A stretch of 43,635 nucleotides of DNA, taken from IMG/VR virus record IMGVR_UViG_3300010052_000146, positions 1 through 43,635 of that record; one strand, 5' to 3'. The stretch's first letter is position 1. Each line of letters opens with the position of its first letter. The stretch is from a virus (taxonomy: Duplodnaviria > Caudoviricetes). This document shows positions 2,264 through 35,960 of the stretch, in pieces. The notes beneath the pieces were generated by a model. The model had not been told where the DNA came from. It worked only from the letters and a program-made list of their open reading frames with translations, and did not search any database. The translations under genes and the position numbers were made by a program.

Positions 2264-2760
2264 ACCCGCCCTCCATGCTGAGCCAGGACAGCGTCCGCCG
2301 CGCTCAGGATTTCAGAGAGCTGGCAGTCGGTGAAAAGCGTGCCTTGCGCAAATAGCGTGACGTAGCCGGCATAGCTTTCGCCCTCCGCCACGTCGACCTC
2401 TGACGACGGCACAGCGATCCGGTCGCCGGGCCGCGCGTGCGCTGCGCCAAAGCATCGCGCGTGCATGTCTACTTCGCCCGCCGGCACCTGAACCTCGTCG
2501 GGGTAGACCATTTGGCCGCAGGCCTCGCATTGGGGATAGTAGTCACCCTCAAAAGAGGTTCGCAGCAGCGAGGCTGTCTCCCTCAATTCCTGCACCAGCG
2601 CCGACCGTGGGACGATTGGGCGACGGTGCAACTTGTCGCCTCGTTCAATCGCGCGGATGAGGTTCTGAGCGTGGCACGCGGCGTTCTCGCGCCAGTGCTG
2701 GCGATCATGGATCAGCGCCCCAGCGATCAGGGGCATGACGTCGAAGGGAGGCGTGTTCAT
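2260..2760 (-). CDS. Hypothetical phage protein (CxxC...HxxC motif)
   Basis: Start MNTPPF at 2760 coupled to upstream stop; CEACG...MHARC. Confidence 0.6.
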   Translation of the reverse strand: MNTPPFDVMPLIAGALIHDRQHWRENAACHAQNLIRAIERGDKLHRRPIVPRSALVQELRETASLLRTSFEGDYYPQCEACGQMVYPDEVQVPAGEVDMHARCFGAAHARPGDRIAVPSSEVDVAEGESYAGYVTLFAQGTLFTDCQLSEILSAADAVLAQHGGRV

Positions 2761-3161
2761 CACGCAGCCCTCCGGCGCTGGAGGCCGCCCAGGCGGCCAA
2801 GCGGTTCCAGGGAGGCGAGCGCCGCTCGCAGGGCTTCGGCATTGCGGCCTTTCAGCCAGGCGTAGCCGATGAAGCGGGTGCGGTGGCCGAGCTGGTCTTC
2901 GGCGTAGACCCCGACGACCCGGCGCGGGCTGTCTTCGCCCTTCACCATGATTCGGTCGTCGCGCAGGTGCAGGGCCTGGTCGCGACGATCGCGGTGGATG
3001 CGCCGGACCAGCGCCGGCAGATCGGCGAAGACTGCCGGCTTGGTCAGCGGCGAGAGGTTGGGCAGCAGGGCGTAGTCGTAGTGGGCAGGCAAGGTCGGCC
3101 TCCTGAAATAGGCGACGGCGTCGGAAACGGCGGGGCGGGAGCGCTTGAGGCGCGGCGTCAT
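2760..3161 (-). CDS. Hypothetical phage protein
   Basis: 133-aa ORF with start/stop overlaps on both sides. Confidence 0.6.
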   Translation of the reverse strand: MTPRLKRSRPAVSDAVAYFRRPTLPAHYDYALLPNLSPLTKPAVFADLPALVRRIHRDRRDQALHLRDDRIMVKGEDSPRRVVGVYAEDQLGHRTRFIGYAWLKGRNAEALRAALASLEPLGRLGGLQRRRAA

Positions 3162-5767
3162 TCGTCGTCCTCGGCGTAAGGGCGCTCGACCAGCAGGGAG
3201 CGGACGCTGCGGTGGCGGGCGGCGGCATAGTTCGGGGCGACCATCGGATAGTCGCGCGGCAGGCCCCAGCGGTGGCGATAGGCGTCCGGTTCCAGGCCAT
3301 AGGCCGCCCGAAGGTGCTGGGTCAGGCTGAGGAACTTTCGGCCGTCCTCCAGACAGGTGATGTGGTCGGGCGTGATCGAGCGGCGGATGGGGACGGCCGG
3401 CTTGCGCTCTTCCTCTGACGCCAGCTTGACGTCGGCGATCACGAACGCGGCTTCCGTCTCCGCGACCACGGCGTTGAGCGTGGCCATGACCAGCAGGACC
3501 CGCGCCTGGACCAGGTCGGGATGCTCCTGGCCGTCGCTGTCCACGGTGAAGAACGGCGCGCCGCTGGCGTCGAAGATCACACCCAACTCGTCGCCCGTAC
3601 CGGCCGTCAGCGGGAAGCGGACTCCAACGCGATCGAACAGGTCCGCGCGCGAGAAGTCGTCGCTGCGTTCGATTTCCTCGCTCACGCAGTAGAGGGCTTC
3701 CCGCGCCTTCCTGTCGGCGACCTCGTCCACCAGCTCGTCAGCGTCGTGGTCCTGCGGCGCGGGGGCGGCGCTGGCCGGCTCATCCACCACGTTCAGCCAG
3801 GGGGTGCGGTATTCCGCGATCAGCTCGCGCGGCCAGCCGGCGGCTTCGTTCGCGTCCTCCAGCGCTTCGTCGGTCAGGTCCTGTTCGTCGGCCCAGGCTT
3901 GGCCCTGATCGGTCATGGCCGCGTGCGGCCCGTTAGGGAACACATGGCTGACCTTGATCAGGCGCAGATCGTTGGCGAGCCGCGCGAAGGACGCGTCGAG
4001 CCAGTACTTGCGAACCTGGGTCCAGCGCTCGCCCGTCACAGCGCCATCGTAGCCGTCGTCACCGTTGGCGAGCTTCATCGCCAGCTCCAGCATGGCGAGC
4101 CGTTCGAGGGGCGTCAGCTCGCGGAGCTGTGCCGGGGCGGCGGTCGGCGCGGGCGCGGCGTCGCGCTTTCCCCCTCCCCCACTGTTACGTGGTCCGCCGC
4201 CCTCGGCGATGCGCCGCGCCTCGTTGGCGCGAGTCAGGTTGGGGAAGCGGCGGCCGTTGACCACCAGGGGGTCATCGAAGACCAGCCAAGACTCGGGGAC
4301 CTGCAGCAGCGGGAGCTGGGGACGCTCGGCGATTTTCGCCTCCAGCCACGGCGCGTGCTGTTGCTCCACCAAGCGGGGTCGATGATCCTTGGTGTTGATC
4401 AGGCCGACGATATGCCGCGTCACCACTTCACACAGCGTCGCCCGGCCACGGAGGCCGAGGCATGAGCGGTAGCCGGTGTCGCTGAGGAAGGGCGCGTTTA
4501 GGTCATGGACATGCAGTTCGACATCGCCTCCGGGCGTGTATCGCGAAGGGCGTCCTCGCGCCGCGACGACGACGGGCATTCCGTTGATGTCGATCATGAA
4601 CAGGCCCTGTTGGCCGTACATCGGCGGCTCGCCGTCCGGCGCGGCGAGCGCGGCGGCGACGACGTCCGTCGCTGAGGGGCGCCCCTCCCGCGGGGCGGCC
4701 GACCCACTCGCCTCCCCGCCATTGAAGGCGTAGACGACCTGGTCGTAGCGCTCGGCCGCGGCGCACGCCGCGTTGGTATCGCCGCGGCGGATGGCGGCGT
4801 CGTACTCGTGCAGCTCGGCCAGCGCGGTCTTCAGGAGTTCGGCGCGGTCTTCGCCCTGAGGCTCCGGCGCGTCCAGATATGCCATATGGGCAGGGCGCGG
4901 AGGCGCCACCTCTTCCACGTCGATCTGATGGGGCTCGGGCTCCGCCGGCTTGGGGACTTTCACGGCGTTGCGCAGCCATTCCCAGGTGTGGTCGGGGCCG
5001 CCGGCCTCGTGCAGGGCGATGTCTTCGGGCGAGGCCTCGCGCAGGACCTTGGTCATTTCCTGAACGGTGCGCGGATCGCGGCCGGTGCGCAGCGCAGCCT
5101 CGCGCGCCGACCAACCGGTTTCCGCGATCAGCTCGGCATAGGCCCTCGCCTCTTCGATCAGGGTCAGGTTGGCCCGCTGGCCGTTCTCGACCAGGGCGAG
5201 ATAGCTGACCTGGCCGGCGGATCGTTCGCGCTGGATCGCGCGCAGTCGGCGGTCGGTCGGCCACAGGCCACGCTCGATCAGCAGGCCCACCGCGCGCCAG
5301 CGGCGTTCGCCCGCGGCGATGTCGTGGACCCCGTCATTATCCGGCGGGAAGACCACCAGGTTCTGAAGGACGTCCCCCGCGTCATGGATGGTCGCGGCTA
5401 GCGCCTCCAGCTCGGCCTCGTCGATGCGCTTGCGCGGCTGGAGCGGATTGGGGCGCAGCTCGTGGTGCGCCAGCATCATGACGTCGGTCGCCCCCCCGCC
5501 CTCGGCGACGGCCGCCCCGTTGGCCACGTCGATCGCGTGCAGCGCTCGGCGGCCGGCGTCGGTCAGGTCGAAGGGCTTGTCGTGGGTGACCAGGCCGTCG
5601 CGGTGGAGCAGGTCGAGCTGGCGGGCGAGGTTCTTGGAGTCGCGGCCCGAGGCAGCGGCGACGGCTTTCAGATCGGCCAACGGGCCGCCCGCGAAGGCGC
5701 GCAGGATGTCGACATTCTGGAGCGCGACGACCGTCAGGGCCGAAGGCGCAGGCGTGGGGGCGTTCAT
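3158..5767 (-). CDS. Multidomain protein: N-terminal HTH + ParB/Srx CTPase + HTH + KlcB-like region + C-terminal Ros/MucR zinc finger
   Basis: NPLQPRK, AAGERRWRA (GxRR) and ENGQRANL ParB motifs; PPMYGQQG...PFLSDTGYRS resembles KlcB; PAVPIRRSITPDHITCLEDGRKF...RWGLPRDYPMVAPNY is the MucR DNA-binding domain. Confidence 0.88.
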   Translation of the reverse strand: MNAPTPAPSALTVVALQNVDILRAFAGGPLADLKAVAAASGRDSKNLARQLDLLHRDGLVTHDKPFDLTDAGRRALHAIDVANGAAVAEGGGATDVMMLAHHELRPNPLQPRKRIDEAELEALAATIHDAGDVLQNLVVFPPDNDGVHDIAAGERRWRAVGLLIERGLWPTDRRLRAIQRERSAGQVSYLALVENGQRANLTLIEEARAYAELIAETGWSAREAALRTGRDPRTVQEMTKVLREASPEDIALHEAGGPDHTWEWLRNAVKVPKPAEPEPHQIDVEEVAPPRPAHMAYLDAPEPQGEDRAELLKTALAELHEYDAAIRRGDTNAACAAAERYDQVVYAFNGGEASGSAAPREGRPSATDVVAAALAAPDGEPPMYGQQGLFMIDINGMPVVVAARGRPSRYTPGGDVELHVHDLNAPFLSDTGYRSCLGLRGRATLCEVVTRHIVGLINTKDHRPRLVEQQHAPWLEAKIAERPQLPLLQVPESWLVFDDPLVVNGRRFPNLTRANEARRIAEGGGPRNSGGGGKRDAAPAPTAAPAQLRELTPLERLAMLELAMKLANGDDGYDGAVTGERWTQVRKYWLDASFARLANDLRLIKVSHVFPNGPHAAMTDQGQAWADEQDLTDEALEDANEAAGWPRELIAEYRTPWLNVVDEPASAAPAPQDHDADELVDEVADRKAREALYCVSEEIERSDDFSRADLFDRVGVRFPLTAGTGDELGVIFDASGAPFFTVDSDGQEHPDLVQARVLLVMATLNAVVAETEAAFVIADVKLASEEERKPAVPIRRSITPDHITCLEDGRKFLSLTQHLRAAYGLEPDAYRHRWGLPRDYPMVAPNYAAARHRSVRSLLVERPYAEDDE

Positions 5768-5786: not shown

Positions 5787-6176
5787 TTAGGCCGCGTATT
5801 CGAAGGCTTCGGGCGGAGCCCAGCCGGCGGCGTGCAGGTTGCTGAGGATTTCGCGGACCTGGTCGAGCGACATGCCGTCCCAGATGACGGCGATGACGAC
5901 CGGGTCCGCGCCGGTGGAAAGGTAGGGGACCATGTGCGCCGGCGGGTCGGAGAGAAGATCGATCTCCCCGCCCGCCGCCTCGACCGCGGCGACGGACTGC
6001 GGCGCCCGGGCGATGCGGCGGAGGATGGCGCGGACGACCAGAACGGGGTCCTTGTTCCAGAAGTCCCGCCAGCGGCGCGGGCTGGCGACGTCGTCGTGTT
6101 CCACGTCGGGGGCGAAGGGCGTCAGGTGGACGCCGATTGCCCGCTGCGTGGAGACGCGAGCGGCGCTCGCGTTCAC
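5787..6176 (-). CDS. Hypothetical protein
   Basis: 129-aa ORF coupled (GTGA overlap) to the upstream gene. Confidence 0.55.
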   Translation of the reverse strand: MNASAARVSTQRAIGVHLTPFAPDVEHDDVASPRRWRDFWNKDPVLVVRAILRRIARAPQSVAAVEAAGGEIDLLSDPPAHMVPYLSTGADPVVIAVIWDGMSLDQVREILSNLHAAGWAPPEAFEYAA

Positions 6177-6925: not shown

Positions 6926-7066
6926 GGGCGCTCCCCCTCTGAAGGAAGGCGCCCGCGGCCAGGGCTGACTTACGGAATGGGCTAGACCGCCCCCCGAGTT
7001 CGGAGTTCGGCCAGGCCTAGGCGCGGGCGCTCAACGCCGTTGCGTCGGCGTCGAGGGAGAGGATTG

Positions 7067-7136
7067 GGACTATTGGTCCATAACGTCAAGACCGTGATCA
7101 GGACTTTTGGTAATTTTTGTCCATGACCGATTGTCC
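7067..7136. promoter_or_regulatory. Left operator/promoter (OL/PL-like)
   Basis: GGACTATTGGTCC 7067-7079, GGACTTTTGGTAA 7101-7113, GTAATTTTTGTCC 7110-7122, TGACCGATTGTCC 7124-7136; minus-strand TTGACG -35 at 7084-7089. Confidence 0.7.
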
Positions 7137-7178
7137 CGCCTTGGCCTGCTGGTCATCGACCAACGGCAAAGGTAGCCG

Positions 7179-7793
7179 CTACCGCCGCCGCCAAGGCCAC
7201 GCCGCGTGCATACGGCTGACCTGAGTGAGGGGGAGCTTGATTTCGCGCTCCGGGTTGTACTGGAACAGGAAGACGTAGCCGTCCTTCTGTCCTCGATATT
7301 CCTTCACAATCCCCGTCCCATCGCGCAGTTCGACGAGGACGTCCTCGTTGCGCACAGGCGGGATATCGGGCTCCACGACCACCTGTTCGCCGGATCGCAG
7401 TCGGGGGTGCATACTCTCGCCAACCAGCCGCAGGATAAAGGCTCCTGGCCGCATGATGCCGGCCGGCACGGTGATCTCGTCTAGGACTTGATCGCTCGCA
7501 AGCGCGACCCGGTCGTCACCGCCCAGGGCGGCATAGCCAAAGACCCGCACCCGCTGACCGGACCGGGCAGGCATAGCGCTCTCGCCAGACGCCCCAGCCT
7601 CGCCCGCCAGGAAAGACTGGATCACCTCAAGCTGACTCGCGGTGGGCTCGGTGTCCCGCTTCAGGCGCCTCGCGAGGTCGCTAGGGTCCAAGCCCAGCTT
7701 TTTCGCGAGCTGGTTCTTCGCACCGCGGGGCTTCTCTTCAAGTCGGTCGGCGATCGCACGCCAGGTCAGGATGTCGGCCATGAGGGCGAACAT
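7179..7793 (-). CDS. cI: CI-like repressor, HTH + S24 autopeptidase
   Basis: HTH KNQLAKKLGLDPSDLARRL; catalytic Ser in GESMHP and Lys in IVKEY; divergent from the cro-like gene; start could be 7781. Confidence 0.9.
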   Translation of the reverse strand: MFALMADILTWRAIADRLEEKPRGAKNQLAKKLGLDPSDLARRLKRDTEPTASQLEVIQSFLAGEAGASGESAMPARSGQRVRVFGYAALGGDDRVALASDQVLDEITVPAGIMRPGAFILRLVGESMHPRLRSGEQVVVEPDIPPVRNEDVLVELRDGTGIVKEYRGQKDGYVFLFQYNPEREIKLPLTQVSRMHAAWPWRRR

Positions 7794-7819
7794 CGGTGGA
7801 AAACCGGCGCGAGCGGTAT

Positions 7820-7880
7820 TGACCGATAGGCCGCGAATCACAGACCTCATACATGACGATTAGTCTTGGACTTTTAGTCC
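7820..7880. promoter_or_regulatory. Right operator region (OR-like)
   Basis: TGACCGATAGGCC 7820-7832, TGACGATTAGTCT 7854-7866, GGACTTTTAGTCC 7868-7880 between divergent cI and cro. Confidence 0.7.
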
Positions 7881-7893
7881 TATGATAGAGACC

Positions 7894-8142
7894 ATGAAAA
7901 ATAGCAACGCTCCAGCCTCTCTTTCCCCCTCCAGGCGAGTCCGCCAGTTGCTTGGCGCGAAGAAGCTCGCGGTGCTGTGCGACCGGACGACCGATGCCGT
8001 CCGCAAATGGGACCGGCCGCGCTCCAAGGGCGGACTGGGCGGGCTGGTCCCTGCCGAGTTCCAGGCCCGCATCCTCGCGGCGATCAGGAACGACGGTCAC
8101 CCGTTCACCGCTGCGGATCTGATCGCGGAGCCGGTGCAATGA
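7894..8142 (+). CDS. Cro-like HTH regulator
   Basis: LLGAKKLAVLCDRTTDAVRKW...GGLGGLVP; divergent from cI. Confidence 0.8.
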   Translation: MKNSNAPASLSPSRRVRQLLGAKKLAVLCDRTTDAVRKWDRPRSKGGLGGLVPAEFQARILAAIRNDGHPFTAADLIAEPVQ

Positions 8143-10802: not shown

Positions 10803-11987
10803 ATGACCTCCCATACGAGCGCCGCTCGCATCTTCGATGAAGCCCGGCGGGCCGTGAGCGTCGAAGACCTGGCCACAAGGGCCGGGATCAAGCTGGTGCG
10901 CGCCGGGCGCGAGCGCCGTGGCCCCTGCCCGATCTGCGGCGCGGGGTCGAAGTCCGGTTCGCTGCCGTTCGCGGTCCGCGAGGGCGGTTTGAGCTTCCGC
11001 ACCTTCTGCGGCTGCAACCTGCGCGGCGATGTGGTGGACCTGGAGCAGGCCCTGGGTGGCGGAACCCTGGTCGAGGCGGCGCGGCGTCTGGTCGGGAACG
11101 AGTTCCGTAGTGCGCCCAGGCCGCAGCCGACCAGCGCCCCGGCGCAGACCGGCCCCAGCAATTCCGACCGGATCGCGATGGAGCTGTGGCAAGGGGCGAT
11201 CCCCATCGAGGGGACGCTGGTCGAGCGGTATCTGGCGGCGCGCGGGATCGCTCCGCAGATCATCGCGCGGGCCGCGCCCAATCTGCGGTTCCACGCCCTG
11301 GCGAAATGGGGCTGGGACGATTCGGCGCGAAGCTGGATCACCGCGCCGGCCATGCTGGTGCAGGTGCAGACGCCGGCCGGACCGACCGGAGGCGTCCACG
11401 CCACCTACCTGAACCGCTCTGGCCTCGGCAAAGCGGACCTGAAGCCGGCCAAGCGCATGTGGGGCCGTCAGGCCGACGCGGACGGCCGCCCCGGCGGCGC
11501 GTGGCTGATCGGGCCGGCGGGGGCGGGCGACCTGGTGACCGGCGAGGGGATTGAGAGCGTGCTGTCGGCCGCGACCCTGGCGCTGCGCGGCGGGCGGTTC
11601 ATGCGGGCGTGCGCGGCCCTGTCGCTGGACCGGCTGCAAGGCGGGCTGCTGCGTGACGATGAAGGATGCATCGACGTCGGCGCGCCCCAGCCCAATCCCG
11701 AGAGCCCGGCCTTTTCCTGGCCGCAGCCGCCCGGCTGGCCCTGGCGCGAGGTCCTGGTTGCGGTGGACCGCGACATGAGCCCGATCAAGCTTAAGGGCCG
11801 GACGGGACGGGGAAAGGTCTGCTGGTTCGAGTTCGGGCCTGCCGAGCGGGCGCAGCTATGCGGCCGGCTGGCGGTGGCCGCCTGGCGCGCCGCAGGCGCC
11901 CCGAAGGTGCGGGCGATCGCACCGCCCCCTGGTTTCGATTTCAACGACGAGCTGCGCCGGGTGCTGGCGCGGGAGAAGGACGCGTGA
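10803..11987 (+). CDS. Phage primase (CHC2-like zinc finger + Toprim)
   Basis: GPCPICG...FCGC.GDVVD; ERYLAARG; GVHATYL; VTGEGIES; VAVDRD; DFND. Confidence 0.85.
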   Translation: MTSHTSAARIFDEARRAVSVEDLATRAGIKLVRAGRERRGPCPICGAGSKSGSLPFAVREGGLSFRTFCGCNLRGDVVDLEQALGGGTLVEAARRLVGNEFRSAPRPQPTSAPAQTGPSNSDRIAMELWQGAIPIEGTLVERYLAARGIAPQIIARAAPNLRFHALAKWGWDDSARSWITAPAMLVQVQTPAGPTGGVHATYLNRSGLGKADLKPAKRMWGRQADADGRPGGAWLIGPAGAGDLVTGEGIESVLSAATLALRGGRFMRACAALSLDRLQGGLLRDDEGCIDVGAPQPNPESPAFSWPQPPGWPWREVLVAVDRDMSPIKLKGRTGRGKVCWFEFGPAERAQLCGRLAVAAWRAAGAPKVRAIAPPPGFDFNDELRRVLAREKDA

Positions 11988-15692: not shown

Positions 15693-17815
15693 ACGCCCCC
15701 GTTCTCGGCGCCGGCTGGGTCGAACCCGTCCTGGGTGCGAACGCCGCTCGCATCGACAAATCGTTCGCCACGGGCTTGCGGCCTCCGCCGCGCGTCAGCG
15801 TATCGGACTGGGCCGCGGAACATCGGGAGTTCGCAGAGGACGCCCCCTATCCTGGGAAGTGGGATCGGACGCGGGCGGCCTACCTGGACGAGATCATGGA
15901 CGTCCTGTCGCCGCACGACCCGGCGGCGCAGGTGTCCATCATCAAATGCGCGCAGTCGGGTGGCTCGGCGAGCGCCGAGAACTGGATGGGCTACGTTTCG
16001 GACGTCGCCCCCGGCCCGATGATGTACGTCCAGGCGACCATCACGGCGGCCAAGGATTGGCTGGCGGAAAAGTTCTGGCCGATGGTGGAGGCTACGCCCC
16101 GCCTCAACCCGGATCGGCGGGGAAGCATCGTCGGCCGGCGGGTCAAGGAAGGGGGTTCGAACGCCAACCGCGTGCGCTTCAAGCGCGGCGGCTGGATGCT
16201 GATCGCGGGCGCGAATTCGGCGGCCACGCTGCGTCAGCACTCCATCCGTTACGTGGTCGAAGACGATCTCGACCAGTGGCCGGACGACCTGAACCGGCAA
16301 GGATCGCCGGAAGGGATGGTGACGGCGCGCCTGCGGGCGTTCACACGGCAGGGGATCGCCAAGCGGCTCAAGATTTCGACGCCGACGAACAAGGGTGCAT
16401 CGAAAATCGGTCGGGCCTGGGCGGCCTCTGACCAGCGCCGCTACTACCTCAAGTGTCGGCACTGCCTCGCGCGCTTCGATCCGGTCTTCACCGACCTCAA
16501 ATACCCGGACGGCCGTCCCGATCAGGTGAAACTGATCACACCGTGCTGCCAGGAGCCGGTCGCGCACTGGGAAAAGGCTCTGATGAGCTTCGCCGATGGC
16601 TGGCTTGCGACGGCGCCGACCGAGGACGGCGAAGTCCCCGATCGGGTGATGGCGGAAAACGAGTTCCAGGGCTGGCGCAACGTGAAACGCGACGGCCTTC
16701 AGCCTGGGTTTCACATATCGGGGATCATCACCGCGTTCCAAACGTGGGCTGATCTTTGCAAAGGGTTCGTCGACGCACAGGGAGACGTCAACGCGCTCCG
16801 CACCTGGACCAATCTGGACCTGGGCGACGAGTTCGTCATGAGGGGCGACGCCCCTCCGGCCGAGTCGTTGCAGGTGCTGCGGTCGCAGGAGTGGGACAAA
16901 CACCAGCTTCCCTACGGGCCGATCGTTTTCACCCTGGCCTGCGACGTTCAAGGCGACGGGATCTACTTCGAAGGCCTCGGCTGGGCCTTCGGGCTGGAAA
17001 ACTGGAGCCTGGACCACGGCTTTCTGCCCGGCCCGACGGATATTCCGGGTCAAGGGGCATGGGCGGCGCTGGAAGAGTACGCGAAACGGACCTTCGTCCT
17101 GCCGGGTGGCAAAGCCTTCGGCTACGACATGATCGTGGTGGACGCTGGCTATCACACCGAGGGAGCAAAGGCGTTCTGCAAGCGGCGCCCTAACCGCCTC
17201 CCGGTCTTCGGGCGCGATGGTTGGACCCTGCCGATCCTCGGTCGCGGCCAGCCCATTCACTACGAGCAGGGCAAGAACAACCGCAACAAGCGCCGGAAAA
17301 AGGCCGGCGAGGATGCGTTCTTGGTCGGCACCTATGGCGCAAAGCTGTCGTGGTTCGGGTTCCTGCGCGCGTCGATCGAAACCGCCCAGGCCGAGCTGCG
17401 CGGCGAACGGCCTGAGCCTCTACGGGGCCGTGTGCATTTCGGTCGCCATGCGACGGACGACTATTTCGACATGCTCACCAGCGAGAGCTGCGTGGTCGAG
17501 GTGAAACGCGGTCATGCCCGCCGGGTTTGGAAGCCGGAGCCCGGCCGGCAAAACCACTGGCTGGACTGCCGCATCTACAACCGCGCCGCCGCTGAGGCGA
17601 TGTCGCTCGATAGCCGATCGTCGGCTGACTGGCTCGCGCTTCAGGCCGACCGGTACGCCTCCGTCGCACCCGGACAGGACGACCTGGTGGCGCGGATGAT
17701 CAACCCAGTTCCCGCGGCGACGCCTGCGCCCGCACCAACACCCGCCCAGCCCCGCCCGCAGGCCACCGAGACGGGCGACGCCGGCTGGATCGACAATCGG
17801 AAGGATTGGCTCTGA
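15689..17815 (+). CDS. Terminase large subunit, GpA family
   Basis: VSDWA, KCAQSGGS, KISTPT, SDQRRY..C..C, ACDVQ, VDAGY, NHWLDCRIY. Confidence 0.95.
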   Translation: MNAPVLGAGWVEPVLGANAARIDKSFATGLRPPPRVSVSDWAAEHREFAEDAPYPGKWDRTRAAYLDEIMDVLSPHDPAAQVSIIKCAQSGGSASAENWMGYVSDVAPGPMMYVQATITAAKDWLAEKFWPMVEATPRLNPDRRGSIVGRRVKEGGSNANRVRFKRGGWMLIAGANSAATLRQHSIRYVVEDDLDQWPDDLNRQGSPEGMVTARLRAFTRQGIAKRLKISTPTNKGASKIGRAWAASDQRRYYLKCRHCLARFDPVFTDLKYPDGRPDQVKLITPCCQEPVAHWEKALMSFADGWLATAPTEDGEVPDRVMAENEFQGWRNVKRDGLQPGFHISGIITAFQTWADLCKGFVDAQGDVNALRTWTNLDLGDEFVMRGDAPPAESLQVLRSQEWDKHQLPYGPIVFTLACDVQGDGIYFEGLGWAFGLENWSLDHGFLPGPTDIPGQGAWAALEEYAKRTFVLPGGKAFGYDMIVVDAGYHTEGAKAFCKRRPNRLPVFGRDGWTLPILGRGQPIHYEQGKNNRNKRRKKAGEDAFLVGTYGAKLSWFGFLRASIETAQAELRGERPEPLRGRVHFGRHATDDYFDMLTSESCVVEVKRGHARRVWKPEPGRQNHWLDCRIYNRAAAEAMSLDSRSSADWLALQADRYASVAPGQDDLVARMINPVPAATPAPAPTPAQPRPQATETGDAGWIDNRKDWL

Positions 17816-19531: not shown

Positions 19532-21505
19532 ATGACAACTCGTCAGACCCGCCGCCAGGTCGCCCTGGCGGTGCAACGTCGTGCGTCCGATGCGTCGAGC
19601 TACAGCGCCGACGCCCGCACGGTCGATCTCACGGCCGCGACCGGCACGCGAGTTCTCCGCTGGTCCTGGGACCGCGACTACTACTGGGAAGTCCTCGACT
19701 GCAGCGAAGGCGCCGTGGACCTCGGTCGCGTCGAGCGCGGCGTGTGCCCCCTGCTGGACGCCCATTCGCGCTGGAGCATCAAGGACCAGCTCGGAAAGAT
19801 CACCGGCGCCAGGTTCGAAGCCGGCGCCCTCATCACGCCGGCGCAGTTCGGCGAATCCGACGCCGCCCGGGAGGCTGAAGCCCAGGTCGCCGCGGGCGTC
19901 ATCAAGGGCGTGAGCATCGGCTACCGGGTCCTTGAGCTGACCCTGACCGAACACAAGGACGGCGACTATCCCGTCTACACCGCCACCCGCTGGGAGCTGC
20001 TGGAAGTCTCCCTTTGTCCCGTTCCCGCCGACCCGGACGCAGGGGTCCGGTCGGGTAGTGGATCGCACCCCTGCATCATCGTGGAGAACCGGCATATGGA
20101 ACCGGAAGAGAACGGCAACCCCGGCCAGGCGCCGGCCATCGAATCCCGCGCGGCTCCGGCCGCGCCGATCGCGCCCGAGCCCCCGGTTCGGACGGTTCAG
20201 CAGCCCGCGCCGGCTGCGCCTGCGAGCGCCGCTCGCATGTCCCCGGCCGAAGCGCTGGACTTCGTGGACGACGCCCGCGCCTTCGGCGACGACATCGCGA
20301 CCCAGGCCCGCGGCTGGGCGACCGACCTGACGCCGGACGTGGCTCGTCAGAACCTTCTGCGCGCTGCTGCGGACGCCCAGCGGGGCGAGGCGCCGCTGCG
20401 GCCGACCCAGGGCAACATCCGCGTCACCGTGGACGAGCGGGACACCGCCCGGGCGGCCATGGAGAACGCCCTGGAACATCGCAGCGACACTTCGGTGGCG
20501 CTGACCGACGCCGCTCGGGAGTGGCGCGGCATGACCCTGCTGGAGATGGCTCGCTACAGCCTGGAGAAAAATGGCGAGAAGCGGGTCCGTGGCCTCAATC
20601 GTCGTGAACTGGCCGACATGGCCCTTTCCCGGGCCCACGCGACGACGGATTTCCCGTTCATCCTGTCGAATGTCGCCGGCAAGACGCTGCGGCGTGGCTA
20701 TGAGCAGGCCCCGCAAACCTTCAAGCGGTGGCAGCGCAAGGCCACGGCGTCTGATTTCAAGCAGATCACCCGCCTGCAGCTCGGCGGCGCCCCCGACTTC
20801 CTGCTGGTGCCTGAAGGCGGGACCTTCAAGATGGGGACCATCGGCGAAGGCCGGGAAGTCTACGCGCTGGCCACCTATGGCCGTCGCCTGTCGTTCACCC
20901 GGCAGATGATGATCAACGATGACCTCGACGCCTTCGTGCGCCTCGCGCAGATGCTTGGCGCGGCGGCGGCGCGCTTCGAATCCGATGCTGCGTATGCGCC
21001 GCTCAACGGCAACCCGAACATGGCGGACGGCATTCCGCTGTTTCACGCCAATCACAAGAACCTCGCGGCGATCGGGGGTGCGATTTCCGAGGGCACTCTG
21101 ACCGACGCGGACGTGGCGATGGGCAGCCAGACGGGGCTCCAGGGCGAAGTCCTCAACATCTCCGGCAAGTACCTGCTGGTGGGTCGCAAGGACCGCGTCC
21201 CGGGCATGAAGATGCTCTCGGGTGTACAGGCGAACACGACCGGCGACGTCAACGTCTTCGCCAACTCGCTGGAGCTGATCGTGGAGTCGCGGCTCAACCG
21301 CGCTGCGGGGCCGCAACCCTACTACGTCGCTGCGGACGCCAACGAGATCGATACGATCGAGTACTGCTATCTGGAAGGCGACGAGGGCGTCTATCTCGAA
21401 GAGCGTCAGGGCTACGAGAGTGACGGCCTGGACCTGAAGGCCCGTCTCGATTTCGCGGTGAAAGCCATCGATCACCGCGGCCTCTACAAGAACCCCGGCC
21501 TGTAA
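19532..21505 (+). CDS. Prohead protease-major capsid fusion
   Basis: PLLDAH, VSIGY, EVSLCPVPAD protease motifs; TTDFP.IL, YGR...TRQMMINDDL capsid motifs. Confidence 0.93.
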   Translation: MTTRQTRRQVALAVQRRASDASSYSADARTVDLTAATGTRVLRWSWDRDYYWEVLDCSEGAVDLGRVERGVCPLLDAHSRWSIKDQLGKITGARFEAGALITPAQFGESDAAREAEAQVAAGVIKGVSIGYRVLELTLTEHKDGDYPVYTATRWELLEVSLCPVPADPDAGVRSGSGSHPCIIVENRHMEPEENGNPGQAPAIESRAAPAAPIAPEPPVRTVQQPAPAAPASAARMSPAEALDFVDDARAFGDDIATQARGWATDLTPDVARQNLLRAAADAQRGEAPLRPTQGNIRVTVDERDTARAAMENALEHRSDTSVALTDAAREWRGMTLLEMARYSLEKNGEKRVRGLNRRELADMALSRAHATTDFPFILSNVAGKTLRRGYEQAPQTFKRWQRKATASDFKQITRLQLGGAPDFLLVPEGGTFKMGTIGEGREVYALATYGRRLSFTRQMMINDDLDAFVRLAQMLGAAAARFESDAAYAPLNGNPNMADGIPLFHANHKNLAAIGGAISEGTLTDADVAMGSQTGLQGEVLNISGKYLLVGRKDRVPGMKMLSGVQANTTGDVNVFANSLELIVESRLNRAAGPQPYYVAADANEIDTIEYCYLEGDEGVYLEERQGYESDGLDLKARLDFAVKAIDHRGLYKNPGL

Positions 21506-25898: not shown

Positions 25899-28393
25899 GC
25901 GGACAAGTTCGTCAGGTCGCCTTCCGCCTGAAGAGCGACGGCAAGGCCGAAGTCCAACGCGACTTCAAGGACGTCGGAGACTCTGGCGCCAAGGCCTACG
26001 CTCATATCGAACAGGCGGCCATCGAGGCCGGCCACGCGGCCGATCGGCAGATGGCCAAGTATCGGGAAATGGCCAAGGCGGCGGAGGCGGCCGGCAAGGC
26101 GGCCGACGCCCAGCGGCGGATCAACGCGCTGCTGGGCGTCAACGCGCCGGTCGGCAAGTCGGCCAAGGACAGCATGGAAGCCTTCATGCAGGCGCCCGGG
26201 CGCGGGCTCTCGACCATGCAGCGGCAAACGCTGGTCTATACCGCCTCCGACGTGTTCGCGTCGGCCGCCTCGGGCATGAACCCGGCGATGATCGCAATGC
26301 AGCAGGGACCGCAGGTCCTTCAAGCGTTCGTGGTCGAAGGCGGCAAGGCGGCCGCGACCATGCTCAAGCTCGGGGTGGCGGTTGGTGTACCGGCCACCGC
26401 GGTTGGGCTGATGACTGCCGCCTTCCTGGCCCAGCGCGAGGCGAACCGGCAGCTCGAAATCTCGGTCAGCGGGATCGGCGCGGCGAGCGGCGAGAGCGCC
26501 GACAGCCTGCGCGCCCTGGCCGACGCCAACCGCGACGCCGGCAAGCTCACGGCCGGCGCGGCGCGGGAAATGGCGGGCGCCTATGCCGAGACGGGCCGGA
26601 TCGGCGGCCAGGTGATCGGCCAACTCATTGCCGATACGCGGGCCTATGCGACCGTGACCCGCCAGGACGCCAAGGCCGCGACGTCGGAGCTGGCCAAGGC
26701 CTTCGCCGATCCGGCCAAGGGGGCGGAGCTGCTGAACAGCAAGCTCGGCCTGCTGGACGACGGGACCATGCGGTACATCCAGACCCTGCTGGAGCAGAAC
26801 CGCGCGACCGACGCCCAGCTCGTGCTGGCCGACGCCCTGTCGCGCCGCCTGGAGAACACCGCGTCCAGCGTCTCCGTTCTCGGCGGTGCGTGGGATGAGG
26901 TGAAGCGGAAGGCGGCGGGCGCATGGGAGTGGATGGGCAAGGCCGTGGACCGCGCCTTGGGCGGCGGCCCGGCGCTCGCCCGTATCCAGGACCTGACGAA
27001 CGAGCGGGCCGTGCAGGCCCAGGTTCCGTTCGGGATGGGCAACCGTCGCGTTCAGGAGATCGACGCCGAGCTGGCCAAGATCCGATCGCAGGAGGCCGCC
27101 CGGGCCCGTCAGGCCGAACAGACCCGCGCCAACCTGATCGCCTCTGACGCCCGCACAGTGCAGGACCGCGTCAACCCGCTCCCCGGCCGCCTGCGCGAGC
27201 TGCGGGCCGACGAAGCGAAGTTGAAGGGCGCGCTCGACAAGGGCCTGCTGACGGACACCGCGCAGGCGCAGAAGGACCTCGCGGCGCTGCGCAAGGAGAT
27301 CAAGGCCGTCGAGGCCGGCTATACCAGCGCCAGCGCCCAGGCGAGCGCTCTGGCGCGCGAGAGCCGCGAGGGTGCGAGCGCCGCTCGCAAGGCGGCCCGG
27401 GAAGCCGAACGGGAGGCTAAGGAGGCCGAGCGCCAGGCTAAGCGCCTGGCCGACCTCCAGTCGCGCGACCATCTCGCGCTCGCCAAGGCGCAGGGCATCA
27501 AGGTCCTGATCGAAGAAGCCGAGCGCGAAGGCCGAGTTCGCAGCCTGACCAACGAGTATGAGTCGGCGGGCCTGTCGCTGACCCGCGCGCGACTTCTCGC
27601 CCAGCAGCAGGTTTCGATGGAGACCCAGGCCGAGTTCGAAGCGCGCCGCAAGCTGGCGACCGAGCTTCCGACCGACTTCGTCTCGACCCAGGACGCCTTG
27701 AAGCGTCAGGAACTGATCCTGGCCGGGGCGAACGACAACATCGACGCCGCCAAGCAGATGAAGGGGGCCTATGAGTCCGCCTTCGACCGGATTGGCGACA
27801 TGCTCGCCGCGGGCAAGACCGACTGGTCGAGCTATCGCGACGCGGGCAAGGCGGCGATCAACGACATCATCGGCGAGATGCTGCGTCTGGCGGCCATCAA
27901 CCCGCTTAAGAACGCGCTCTTCGGCCAGAACAATCCGACCCTCGGGAGCGGCGGCATCCTCGGCGCCATCTTCGGCAAGGGCGGCGGATCGAAAGCCGGT
28001 CTCCTGCCTGGCGAATGGCCGCCGATGCAGCTCCCCGAGCGCTGGAATTTCGGCGGCGGCTCGATCCTCAGTTCGGTGTTCAAGGTTCTGCGCATCCCCG
28101 GTTTCGCCGCGGGTACGGACTACGCGCCGGGCGGCTGGGCCAAGGTCGGCGAGTATGGCGAAGAGCTGGTGCGCCTGCCGCGCGGGTCGCAGGTGTTCAA
28201 CGCCCAGCGGACCGCGGCCATGACCAAGGGTGGCGGCGACGTCTCGGTGCCGATCAGCATCAGCATCGACGCTCGCGGCGCTGGCCCACGCGAGGTCGAG
28301 GCGTTGAGCGCTCGCCTGGACCGCTTCGAGCGGGAGTTCCCGGGCCAAGTGGTGGCGGTCGTGACCGACGCCCGCGAACGACGGTGGATGTAG
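25895..28393 (+). CDS. Tail tape measure protein
   Basis: Ala-rich helical; SGMNP.MIAMQQGPQV, AFADP.KG, C-terminal PGFA.GT...GG.A.VGE.G.ELV.LP.GSQV. Confidence 0.92.
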   Translation: MSGQVRQVAFRLKSDGKAEVQRDFKDVGDSGAKAYAHIEQAAIEAGHAADRQMAKYREMAKAAEAAGKAADAQRRINALLGVNAPVGKSAKDSMEAFMQAPGRGLSTMQRQTLVYTASDVFASAASGMNPAMIAMQQGPQVLQAFVVEGGKAAATMLKLGVAVGVPATAVGLMTAAFLAQREANRQLEISVSGIGAASGESADSLRALADANRDAGKLTAGAAREMAGAYAETGRIGGQVIGQLIADTRAYATVTRQDAKAATSELAKAFADPAKGAELLNSKLGLLDDGTMRYIQTLLEQNRATDAQLVLADALSRRLENTASSVSVLGGAWDEVKRKAAGAWEWMGKAVDRALGGGPALARIQDLTNERAVQAQVPFGMGNRRVQEIDAELAKIRSQEAARARQAEQTRANLIASDARTVQDRVNPLPGRLRELRADEAKLKGALDKGLLTDTAQAQKDLAALRKEIKAVEAGYTSASAQASALARESREGASAARKAAREAEREAKEAERQAKRLADLQSRDHLALAKAQGIKVLIEEAEREGRVRSLTNEYESAGLSLTRARLLAQQQVSMETQAEFEARRKLATELPTDFVSTQDALKRQELILAGANDNIDAAKQMKGAYESAFDRIGDMLAAGKTDWSSYRDAGKAAINDIIGEMLRLAAINPLKNALFGQNNPTLGSGGILGAIFGKGGGSKAGLLPGEWPPMQLPERWNFGGGSILSSVFKVLRIPGFAAGTDYAPGGWAKVGEYGEELVRLPRGSQVFNAQRTAAMTKGGGDVSVPISISIDARGAGPREVEALSARLDRFEREFPGQVVAVVTDARERRWM

Positions 28394-35886: not shown

Positions 35887-35960
35887 CGTGCGAGCGCCGC
35901 TCGCACCCACACCCGGGCGAATGGGATTCGCCTGATCCAACCCCATCGAAAGGACTGCCC

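Follow-up and report, generated by a model that had tools for sequence, protein, structure and literature searches.

The question raised by this locus is what an integrating phage does with a protein in which a ParB-type core is joined to parts of a plasmid protein and of a host silencer, and on which DNA such a protein would act. The stretch analysed (the window) is the complete provirus record IMGVR_UViG_3300010052_000146, 43,635 bases with about 68% GC. The gene in question encodes a modular ParB-like protein of 869 amino acids (aa) on the minus strand (3158..5767), within the leftward early operon between the repressor and the integrase. A preliminary description had read it as a single fused open reading frame for an early phage ParB-type protein, and had proposed that the C-terminal MucR domain defines its function by countering host MucR silencing or rewiring host cell-cycle genes. 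The first part stood: the gene lies in the early operon, the ParB motifs are intact and the product is probably a CTP clamp. The proposed function and target were not supported. The explanation put forward here, tentatively, is that an early prophage clamp of the ParB type coats the phage chromosome, probably insulating it from host DNA-binding and defence machinery.

All the domains named earlier were recovered from the reading frame (5767-3158, minus strand, on which all domain coordinates below lie). The AlphaFold2 model has separate domains on linkers (mean pLDDT 79, pTM 0.33), in the order winged helix, ParB CTPase fold, helix-turn-helix (HTH), KlcB N-terminal region, winged-helix-like repeat, unnamed domain and MucR DNA-binding domain; structure searches with the whole model reached the winged helix, the ParB core and Ros only. 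The N-terminal HTH described before is a MarR-like winged helix by structure match (aa 10-85, 5513..5740; Z 10.4, rmsd 1.6, 71 residues aligned), present in 149/149 ParB-bearing relatives, and it occupies the place of the ParA-binding peptide of canonical ParB. It is followed by the ParB CTPase fold (aa 96-198, 5174..5482) with boxes I-III intact; NPLQPRK, GERRWRA and ENGQR are all found in the protein, and Pfam ParB_N matches aa 96-195 above its cut-off (E 4e-12). The ParB-type HTH DNA-binding domain covers aa 199-272 (4952..5173), with HTH_ParB at aa 200-243 slightly below cut-off, and completes the order typical of the ParB-CTPase fold, an N-terminal domain with boxes I-III and then an HTH. 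TIGR00180 scored 75.4 with a cut-off of 58.45. The best NCBIfam score was that of Noc (86.8 bits, cut-off 315), which also gave the best Foldseek rows for the protein, while the top structural row of the core was KorB, tied with Spo0J (Z 10.9).

Candidate loading sites were obtained by a search for palindromes common to loci with an identical recognition helix, which gave one clear palindrome hit and none in 45 control loci. With up to 2 mismatches allowed, the window yielded 7 instances of the 17-mer TGCGAGCG-N-CGCTCGCA (expected 0.13), along with 6 exact 13-mers (expected 0.04). A parS consensus had a single 3-mismatch match in the window, which is chance level, so the preliminary description was right that canonical parS is missing; what escaped it was the non-canonical palindrome. 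The seven sites lie at 2814..2830 (1 mismatch, within the gene downstream of the ParB-like gene), 6155..6171 (2 mismatches, start of the gene upstream of it), 10814..10830 (1 mismatch, within the primase), 15736..15752 (1 mismatch, within the terminase large subunit), 20221..20237 (exact, within the protease-capsid gene), 27373..27389 (exact, within the tape measure gene) and 35889..35905 (exact, tail region, outside the genes checked). Six of them are intragenic and none is in the repressor-cro spacer. They repeat about every 5 kb, and 99% of the circularised phage genome is at most 5 kb from a site, with a maximum distance of 5.3 kb. Spacing was more even than random in 6/7 genomes (P<0.01; coefficient of variation of the gaps 0.18-0.52 vs 0.81-0.88 for random placement). 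The site-encoding form with the rare codon GCT is the commonest Ala-Ala-Arg form (4/16), and GCT makes up 7% of Ala codons. Related prophages carry 4-12 copies of the window palindrome or of a sister palindrome (half-sites GCGCACG, GCGAACC and GCGAACG), and most family loci have repeats of some type. The GCGAACC type alone matches about 250 stored viral stretches, as estimated by the tool.

The gene and the sites tend to occur together. In a reverse test, 2.9 million viral contigs were scanned for the exact 17-mer alone. It was found in 26 contigs, 13 of which have at least three sites; 11 of these 13 encode a ParB, 9 of them newly found, and the remaining two are partial records (62% and 48% complete). 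In whole bacterial genomes of 3-5 Mb, the exact matches falling inside one prophage-sized stretch were 6/6, 12/12, 8/10, 8/9, 6/7, 8/8, 8/9 and 8/8, and sites were almost absent from host chromosomes outside the prophage. One genome (G013) was too fragmented for confinement to be judged, and in another (G015) the sites were split 6 + 2 over two contigs. In 35 long loci picked solely by their primase, gene and sites were both present in 27, the gene only in 5, sites only in 1 and neither in 2. On the whole records, all six discordant loci have both when one mismatch is allowed: the gene was found for the sites-only locus, and 2-8 sites per record turned up in the gene-only loci. In the two records that lack the gene, 0 and 2 (decayed) sites were counted at one mismatch. 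A primase scan with a single sequence returned no loci.

Within the protein, residue 263 showed the strongest association with site type among 267 columns compared over 52 sequences. An R, K or S at this position accompanied 18/20 inner-C sites and 0/32 inner-G sites, with a grouping that was picked after the data had been seen. At a 50% identity cut, residue 263 was still first for the inner base and third for the four site types. The residue, E263 in the window protein, aligns with G201 of Caulobacter crescentus ParB and R201 of Noc, with a base register that is not identical. Position 201 is the known ParB/Noc specificity residue, at which Arg reads a C:G pair (PMC7383237). Candidate cognate palindromic loading sites on the element's own DNA were found at the level of sequence.

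The palindromes might instead be bound by another phage factor, for instance the repressor at dispersed operators, with the ParB-like protein merely co-occurring. Since the gene is present in 33/35 primase-selected phages, co-occurrence is weak evidence, and site-type clustering favours the ParB tree no more than the primase tree. However, repressor type and site type are uncoupled, as compared by eye: an identical site is found beside repressors that clearly differ, and repressors that closely resemble each other go with different sites, which disfavours the repressor as the site binder. In addition, the neighbouring genes are not universal, phages that lack the gene have no sites or decayed ones, and the top-ranked column is a known specificity position. 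A binder other than the ParB-like protein is considered quite improbable.

Some observations on sites and core motifs stand apart from these counts. On G024:C1 (L380-L381), eight copies of an asymmetric hybrid site, whose halves are GCGCACG and GCGAACG, were seen, a possible intermediate between site types. Palindromes of other sequence, two copies each, occur in L017, L020, L022, L098, L102, L110 and L256 and are possibly repressor operators. A prophage without the ParB core (G021:C1:23083-23643) has a short C-terminal-domain remnant and two one-mismatch sites, possibly by site decay after gene loss. One family member (G019:C1:8004-9965) has a divergent box II (GQRRW), yet 9 exact sites, and further box II variants exist among the relatives.

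By analogy with C. crescentus ParB, Noc and KorB, a dimer would bind the palindrome via its HTH domain, CTP would close the N-terminal gate and the ring would slide some kilobases. Sliding from the sites would give continuous cover of the phage genome after infection or induction, because nearly all of the circular genome lies within 5 kb of a site, and the tail would serve as a platform for exchangeable cargo displayed on phage DNA only. That the protein loads at the palindromes and coats phage DNA appears likely from the predicted fold and the site data. As for the purpose of such a coat, early expression and fast cargo turnover suggest conflict with the host, and shielding is therefore ranked first, gene control second and tethering third. 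Even, intragenic spacing favours a whole-genome coat over promoter control and, with at least nine forced changes of MucR in the family, fits a coat under host pressure. Shielding as the main purpose is nevertheless close to an even call, falling just short of it.

With the same clamp and the same sites, long-range control of phage operons can be envisaged, as in KorB, VirB and BisD; the clamp would slide to promoters and be halted there by a partner or by its own winged helices. RK2, whose roughly 60 kb hold 12 KorB sites, has a similar site density (PMC13768133), KorB heads the structural rows for the core, the protein contains several winged helices and KlcB is part of the KorB circuit. The layout in the window does not follow promoters, since six of seven sites are intragenic, the repressor-cro spacer has none and the spacing is even; moreover, two sites suffice BisD for about 50 kb. 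Operon control is judged rather unlikely as the main purpose.

Several points count against a coat loaded at these sites and used for shielding, besides the choice of the residue 263 grouping after the fact. The evidence at hand separates shielding from gene control in no point. Several family loci show no repeated exact palindrome, and in one genome (G017) the gene is present with 0 exact sites of the type searched. Before follow-up, the primase set gave p 0.095 in a Fisher test; just 2 of its phages lack the gene, and both are incomplete records. A phylogeny-controlled independent-pairs test of residue 263, which had too few pairs, gave 2 pairs in agreement, 0 opposed and 2 with no difference out of 4 (p 0.5), and the number of site-type changes, 10 on the primase tree vs 8-9 on the ParB tree, is non-discriminating. 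Finally, ParB folds may use ATP or GTP, the nucleotide not being predictable from sequence (10.1101/2025.10.10.680097).

Another use of a coat would be positioning or segregation of the excised phage circle without ParA, by nucleoid tethering via the extra DNA-binding domains or by recruitment of host SMC or ParA. No ParA was matched in the prophage, as described earlier, nor in 56 related loci, and the extra winged helices, together with a MucR recognition helix that is intact in 16/37 fusions, would suit tethering. Against segregation, these phages carry integrases, and a winged helix stands at the N-terminus in place of a ParA-binding peptide. A centromere requires clustered sites, whereas here they are evenly spread. 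Segregation is held to be improbable. A ParABS system as such was ruled out, as there is no neighbouring ParA and no clustered canonical parS, and the protein's own sites are dispersed.

The MucR/Ros DNA-binding domain (aa 785-858, 3194..3415) had been the centre of the preliminary description. It was confirmed as a zinc-finger-type domain of this family: Pfam ROS_MUCR matches aa 767-856 (E 2e-28), above cut-off as is the ParB profile, and Ros87 (2jsp) matches aa 785-858 (E 9e-20). C805, D808 and H818 are retained, and the fourth ligand is absent, likewise in host MucR1. The N-terminal oligomerisation domain of free MucR is absent, as had been said, the Ros match starting only at aa 785. What is missing besides are the residues that contact DNA. 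To bind DNA, MucR requires a recognition helix with two Lys and one Arg as well as a basic C-terminal tail (PMC9410896, PMC7710501, PMC11662661). In the window protein these three positions are L813, T816 and Q817 (0/3 basic residues left), and the tail is acidic. All three basic residues are present in 16/37 fused domains vs 57/58 free MucRs; 18/37 fused domains hold at most one, 4 of those via a one-residue insertion, and the distal basic patch is found in 0/37 fusions vs 41/58 free MucRs. Purifying selection acts on the domain, with dN/dS of about 0.1-0.3 across 7 pairs (dN 0.19 and dS 0.75 for the window vs L083). Thirty fused domains group on one side of a branch adjoining Caulobacteraceae MucR1 (SH-aLRT 91, 72 columns), a tree that agrees with a single capture from host MucR1 and later shuffling, which is the probable course.

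Out of 143 relatives, 79 viral loci were returned, of which 62 were parsed and 17 were not. The parsed loci comprised 11 fusions to this ParB and 51 free MucR genes. MucR as a promiscuous phage module was ruled out, each long fusion among the 62 being to this ParB. Almost all of the 51 free viral genes (L187-L254) were full-length and had a basic tail, so that many alphaproteobacterial phages carry a complete silencer. The counter-silencing rationale of the preliminary description was weakened: the prophage, at about 68% GC with low-GC windows making up about 1% of it, offers little AT-rich DNA for MucR to silence, and MucR cargo showed no link with AT-rich phage DNA (13 vs 24 loci, p 0.10). 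The lowest-GC stretches of the window (47-50%) lie at 7050-7150 and 7800-7900, either side of the repressor gene, and are the likeliest binding places of host MucR. Local counter-silencing on phage DNA is possible, mainly for the 16/37 fusions with an intact helix, in which MucR would add weak DNA contacts and compete locally with host MucR. In the window protein, a role of the domain as protein surface or decoy is more likely.

The same data bear on an action in trans, in which the protein would displace or mimic MucR on the host chromosome and rewire cell-cycle genes. The nearest free relatives of the domain are Caulobacteraceae MucR1 proteins, the domain is under the purifying selection given above, MucR1/2 control G1 genes (PMC4083442) and HerB, a plasmid ParB-like protein, reprograms host transcription (PMC13370423). 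However, the candidate sites are on the phage and nearly absent from host chromosomes, 118/149 relatives have no MucR, the oligomerisation domain is missing and the helix and distal patch have lost their basic residues to the extent stated. Since the host chromosome lacks the sites almost entirely and the MucR domain, an optional one, is disarmed here, rewiring of host genes, the target named in the preliminary description, is very improbable.

The protein has many relatives in Caulobacteraceae prophages, with which it forms a large family; the nearest named ones are from Phenylobacterium, Caulobacter and Brevundimonas. When the window protein was taken together with its 150 best matches among 1.84 billion representatives, 149/151 have the winged helix and the ParB core. 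Among these 149, MucR is found in 31, KlcB in 8 and both in 3; the family profile was seeded with MucR-rich sequences, and 31/149 may overestimate the MucR share. MucR was present in 0/9 ParB proteins assembled from the 17-mer scan. On a 92-row ParB tree, in which three truncated rows were scored without MucR and P0014 and P0028 were omitted, MucR changes 11 times, at least 9 of them forced. P0002 has a core nearly identical to that of the window protein, a different middle module and an intact-type MucR. Since a nearly identical core bears other modules and MucR changes often, the tail is regarded as exchangeable cargo. The full window architecture recurs in P0003 and P0004, from other assemblies, and a frameshift artefact, a worry raised at the outset, was thereby ruled out.

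The middle of the tail had been likened to KlcB, and this held for the KlcB N-terminal region (aa 306-480, 4328..4852), optional cargo present in 8/149 relatives. Residues 307-471 share 37% identity with residues 29-189 of IncP KlcB (E 7e-17), the region matches 331 plasmid records, with klcB as the sole gene name among the 20 listed, and its structure has a TM of 0.81 to a KlcB cluster; the Pfam families KlcB_N (PF27393) and KlcB_3rd were both found. The likeness stops short of the KorA/TrbA-like, KorB-contacting module (KlcB 218-247), which lies outside the match and is absent from the fusion. A role of this part as a KorA-like clamp lock was ruled out on that ground. The role of KlcB itself is still open (PMC13768133, PMC2665229). 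A small optional motif follows (aa 497-525, 4193..4279; 46/149 relatives), and then an unnamed repeat domain (aa 548-662, 3782..4126; 1-3 copies per protein, 137/149 relatives), which has no Pfam or PHROG match and is probably winged-helix-like; its profile also matches the N-terminal winged helix of relatives. The unnamed domain at aa 678-782 (3422..3736; 85/149 relatives) is folded in the AlphaFold2 model and, from its position, is a candidate C-terminal dimerisation gate. Pfam and PHROGs gave no further names for tail domains of the window protein. Other tail cargo, in L026:8814-10004 and P0028, matches unnamed PHROG modules common to unrelated phage proteins.

The window also encodes an integrase (1-1296), an S24 repressor (7179-7850), a methyltransferase, a primase, and lambda-like head and tail genes. 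A 133-aa gene of phrog_30753 (2760..3161, minus strand) overlaps the ParB stop codon. Its homologue is found in 36/56 related loci and was undetected in several site-bearing phages, being a frequent neighbour that is not needed for the sites; its product gave no fold match and is a possible partner of the ParB-like protein. None of 50,697 records of cultured phages covers the ParB-like protein, and a metagenome scan gave 2 loci only. No paper was found on the protein family, the MucR fusion or the sites in a literature search that mostly left subscription papers outside. A survey of ParB folds reports orphan prophage ParBs (10.1101/2025.10.10.680097); its main text, in excerpt, makes no mention of MucR or Caulobacter, and its supplements may list these proteins.

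Taken further, the data can be joined into one claim, that temperate phages of Caulobacteraceae form a chromatin of their own: a ParA-less CTP clamp loading at evenly spaced private sites would cover the whole phage chromosome and nothing else, displaying changing captured domains that include the DNA-binding domain of a host silencer as decoy. Clamp and site would co-diversify, so that co-infecting phages keep separate coats, and the fusion suggests that on IncP plasmids, too, the N-region of KlcB rides as cargo on a clamp, via the KorA-like module. This conjunction is viewed as possible, with doubts outweighing confidence. If the coat is real, ParB-type sliding clamps, so far those of chromosomes, plasmids and integrative and conjugative elements (ICEs), would come to include integrating phages and a layout that spans the whole genome. 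The protein, its site and a candidate specificity residue are named and testable at once in Caulobacter. The natural protein-site variants form a series for recognition-code work and possible orthogonal DNA-labelling pairs, and the KlcB fusion offers a testable idea for the role of KlcB.

Compared with known systems, the protein falls under neither ParABS nor the MucR silencers, and it is less than a whole KlcB. It shares with MucR/Ros the C-terminal DNA-binding fold, closest to Caulobacteraceae MucR1, and differs in having no oligomerisation domain, no basic tail and, in the clade of the window protein, a degenerate recognition helix; MucR with extra domains and phage-borne MucR have been mentioned in general terms (PMC7710501). 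HerB (YfjB) of the plasmid leading region is likewise an orphan ParB-like protein that a mobile element expresses early (PMC13370423), but it binds the host chromosome, whereas the candidate sites here are on the phage. Shigella VirB, with its virS site, is also a ParA-less ParB-like CTP clamp and counters a xenogeneic silencer; it acts at AT-rich promoters and has no silencer domain, while here the DNA is GC-rich, the sites are even and intragenic and a silencer's DNA-binding domain is optional cargo. Noc (NBS) is an orphan ParB-family clamp with dispersed palindromes and the same specificity position. It binds the membrane, and unlike the phage-encoded protein with its winged helix and long tail, it is chromosomal and found in Bacillota. 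BisD of ICEclc (bisS) is a ParB-like clamp with an added domain that slides over its own integrated element (PMC12409273), but has two sites, a fixed activator domain and the partner BisC in place of 4-12 sites and exchangeable tails. The protein probably works most like KorB on the IncP-1 plasmid RK2, a ParB-CTP clamp with about one palindromic site (O_B) per 5 kb over a whole mobile element, for which KlcB is a candidate clamp partner (PMC13768133), so that both systems have a KlcB link. KorB has a ParA (IncC) and also partitions, whereas the phage protein has none, sits in an integrating phage, is capped by an N-terminal winged helix and carries the KlcB N-region fused and without the KorA-like module. 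Its placement among the regulatory ParB clamps is well supported by sequence.

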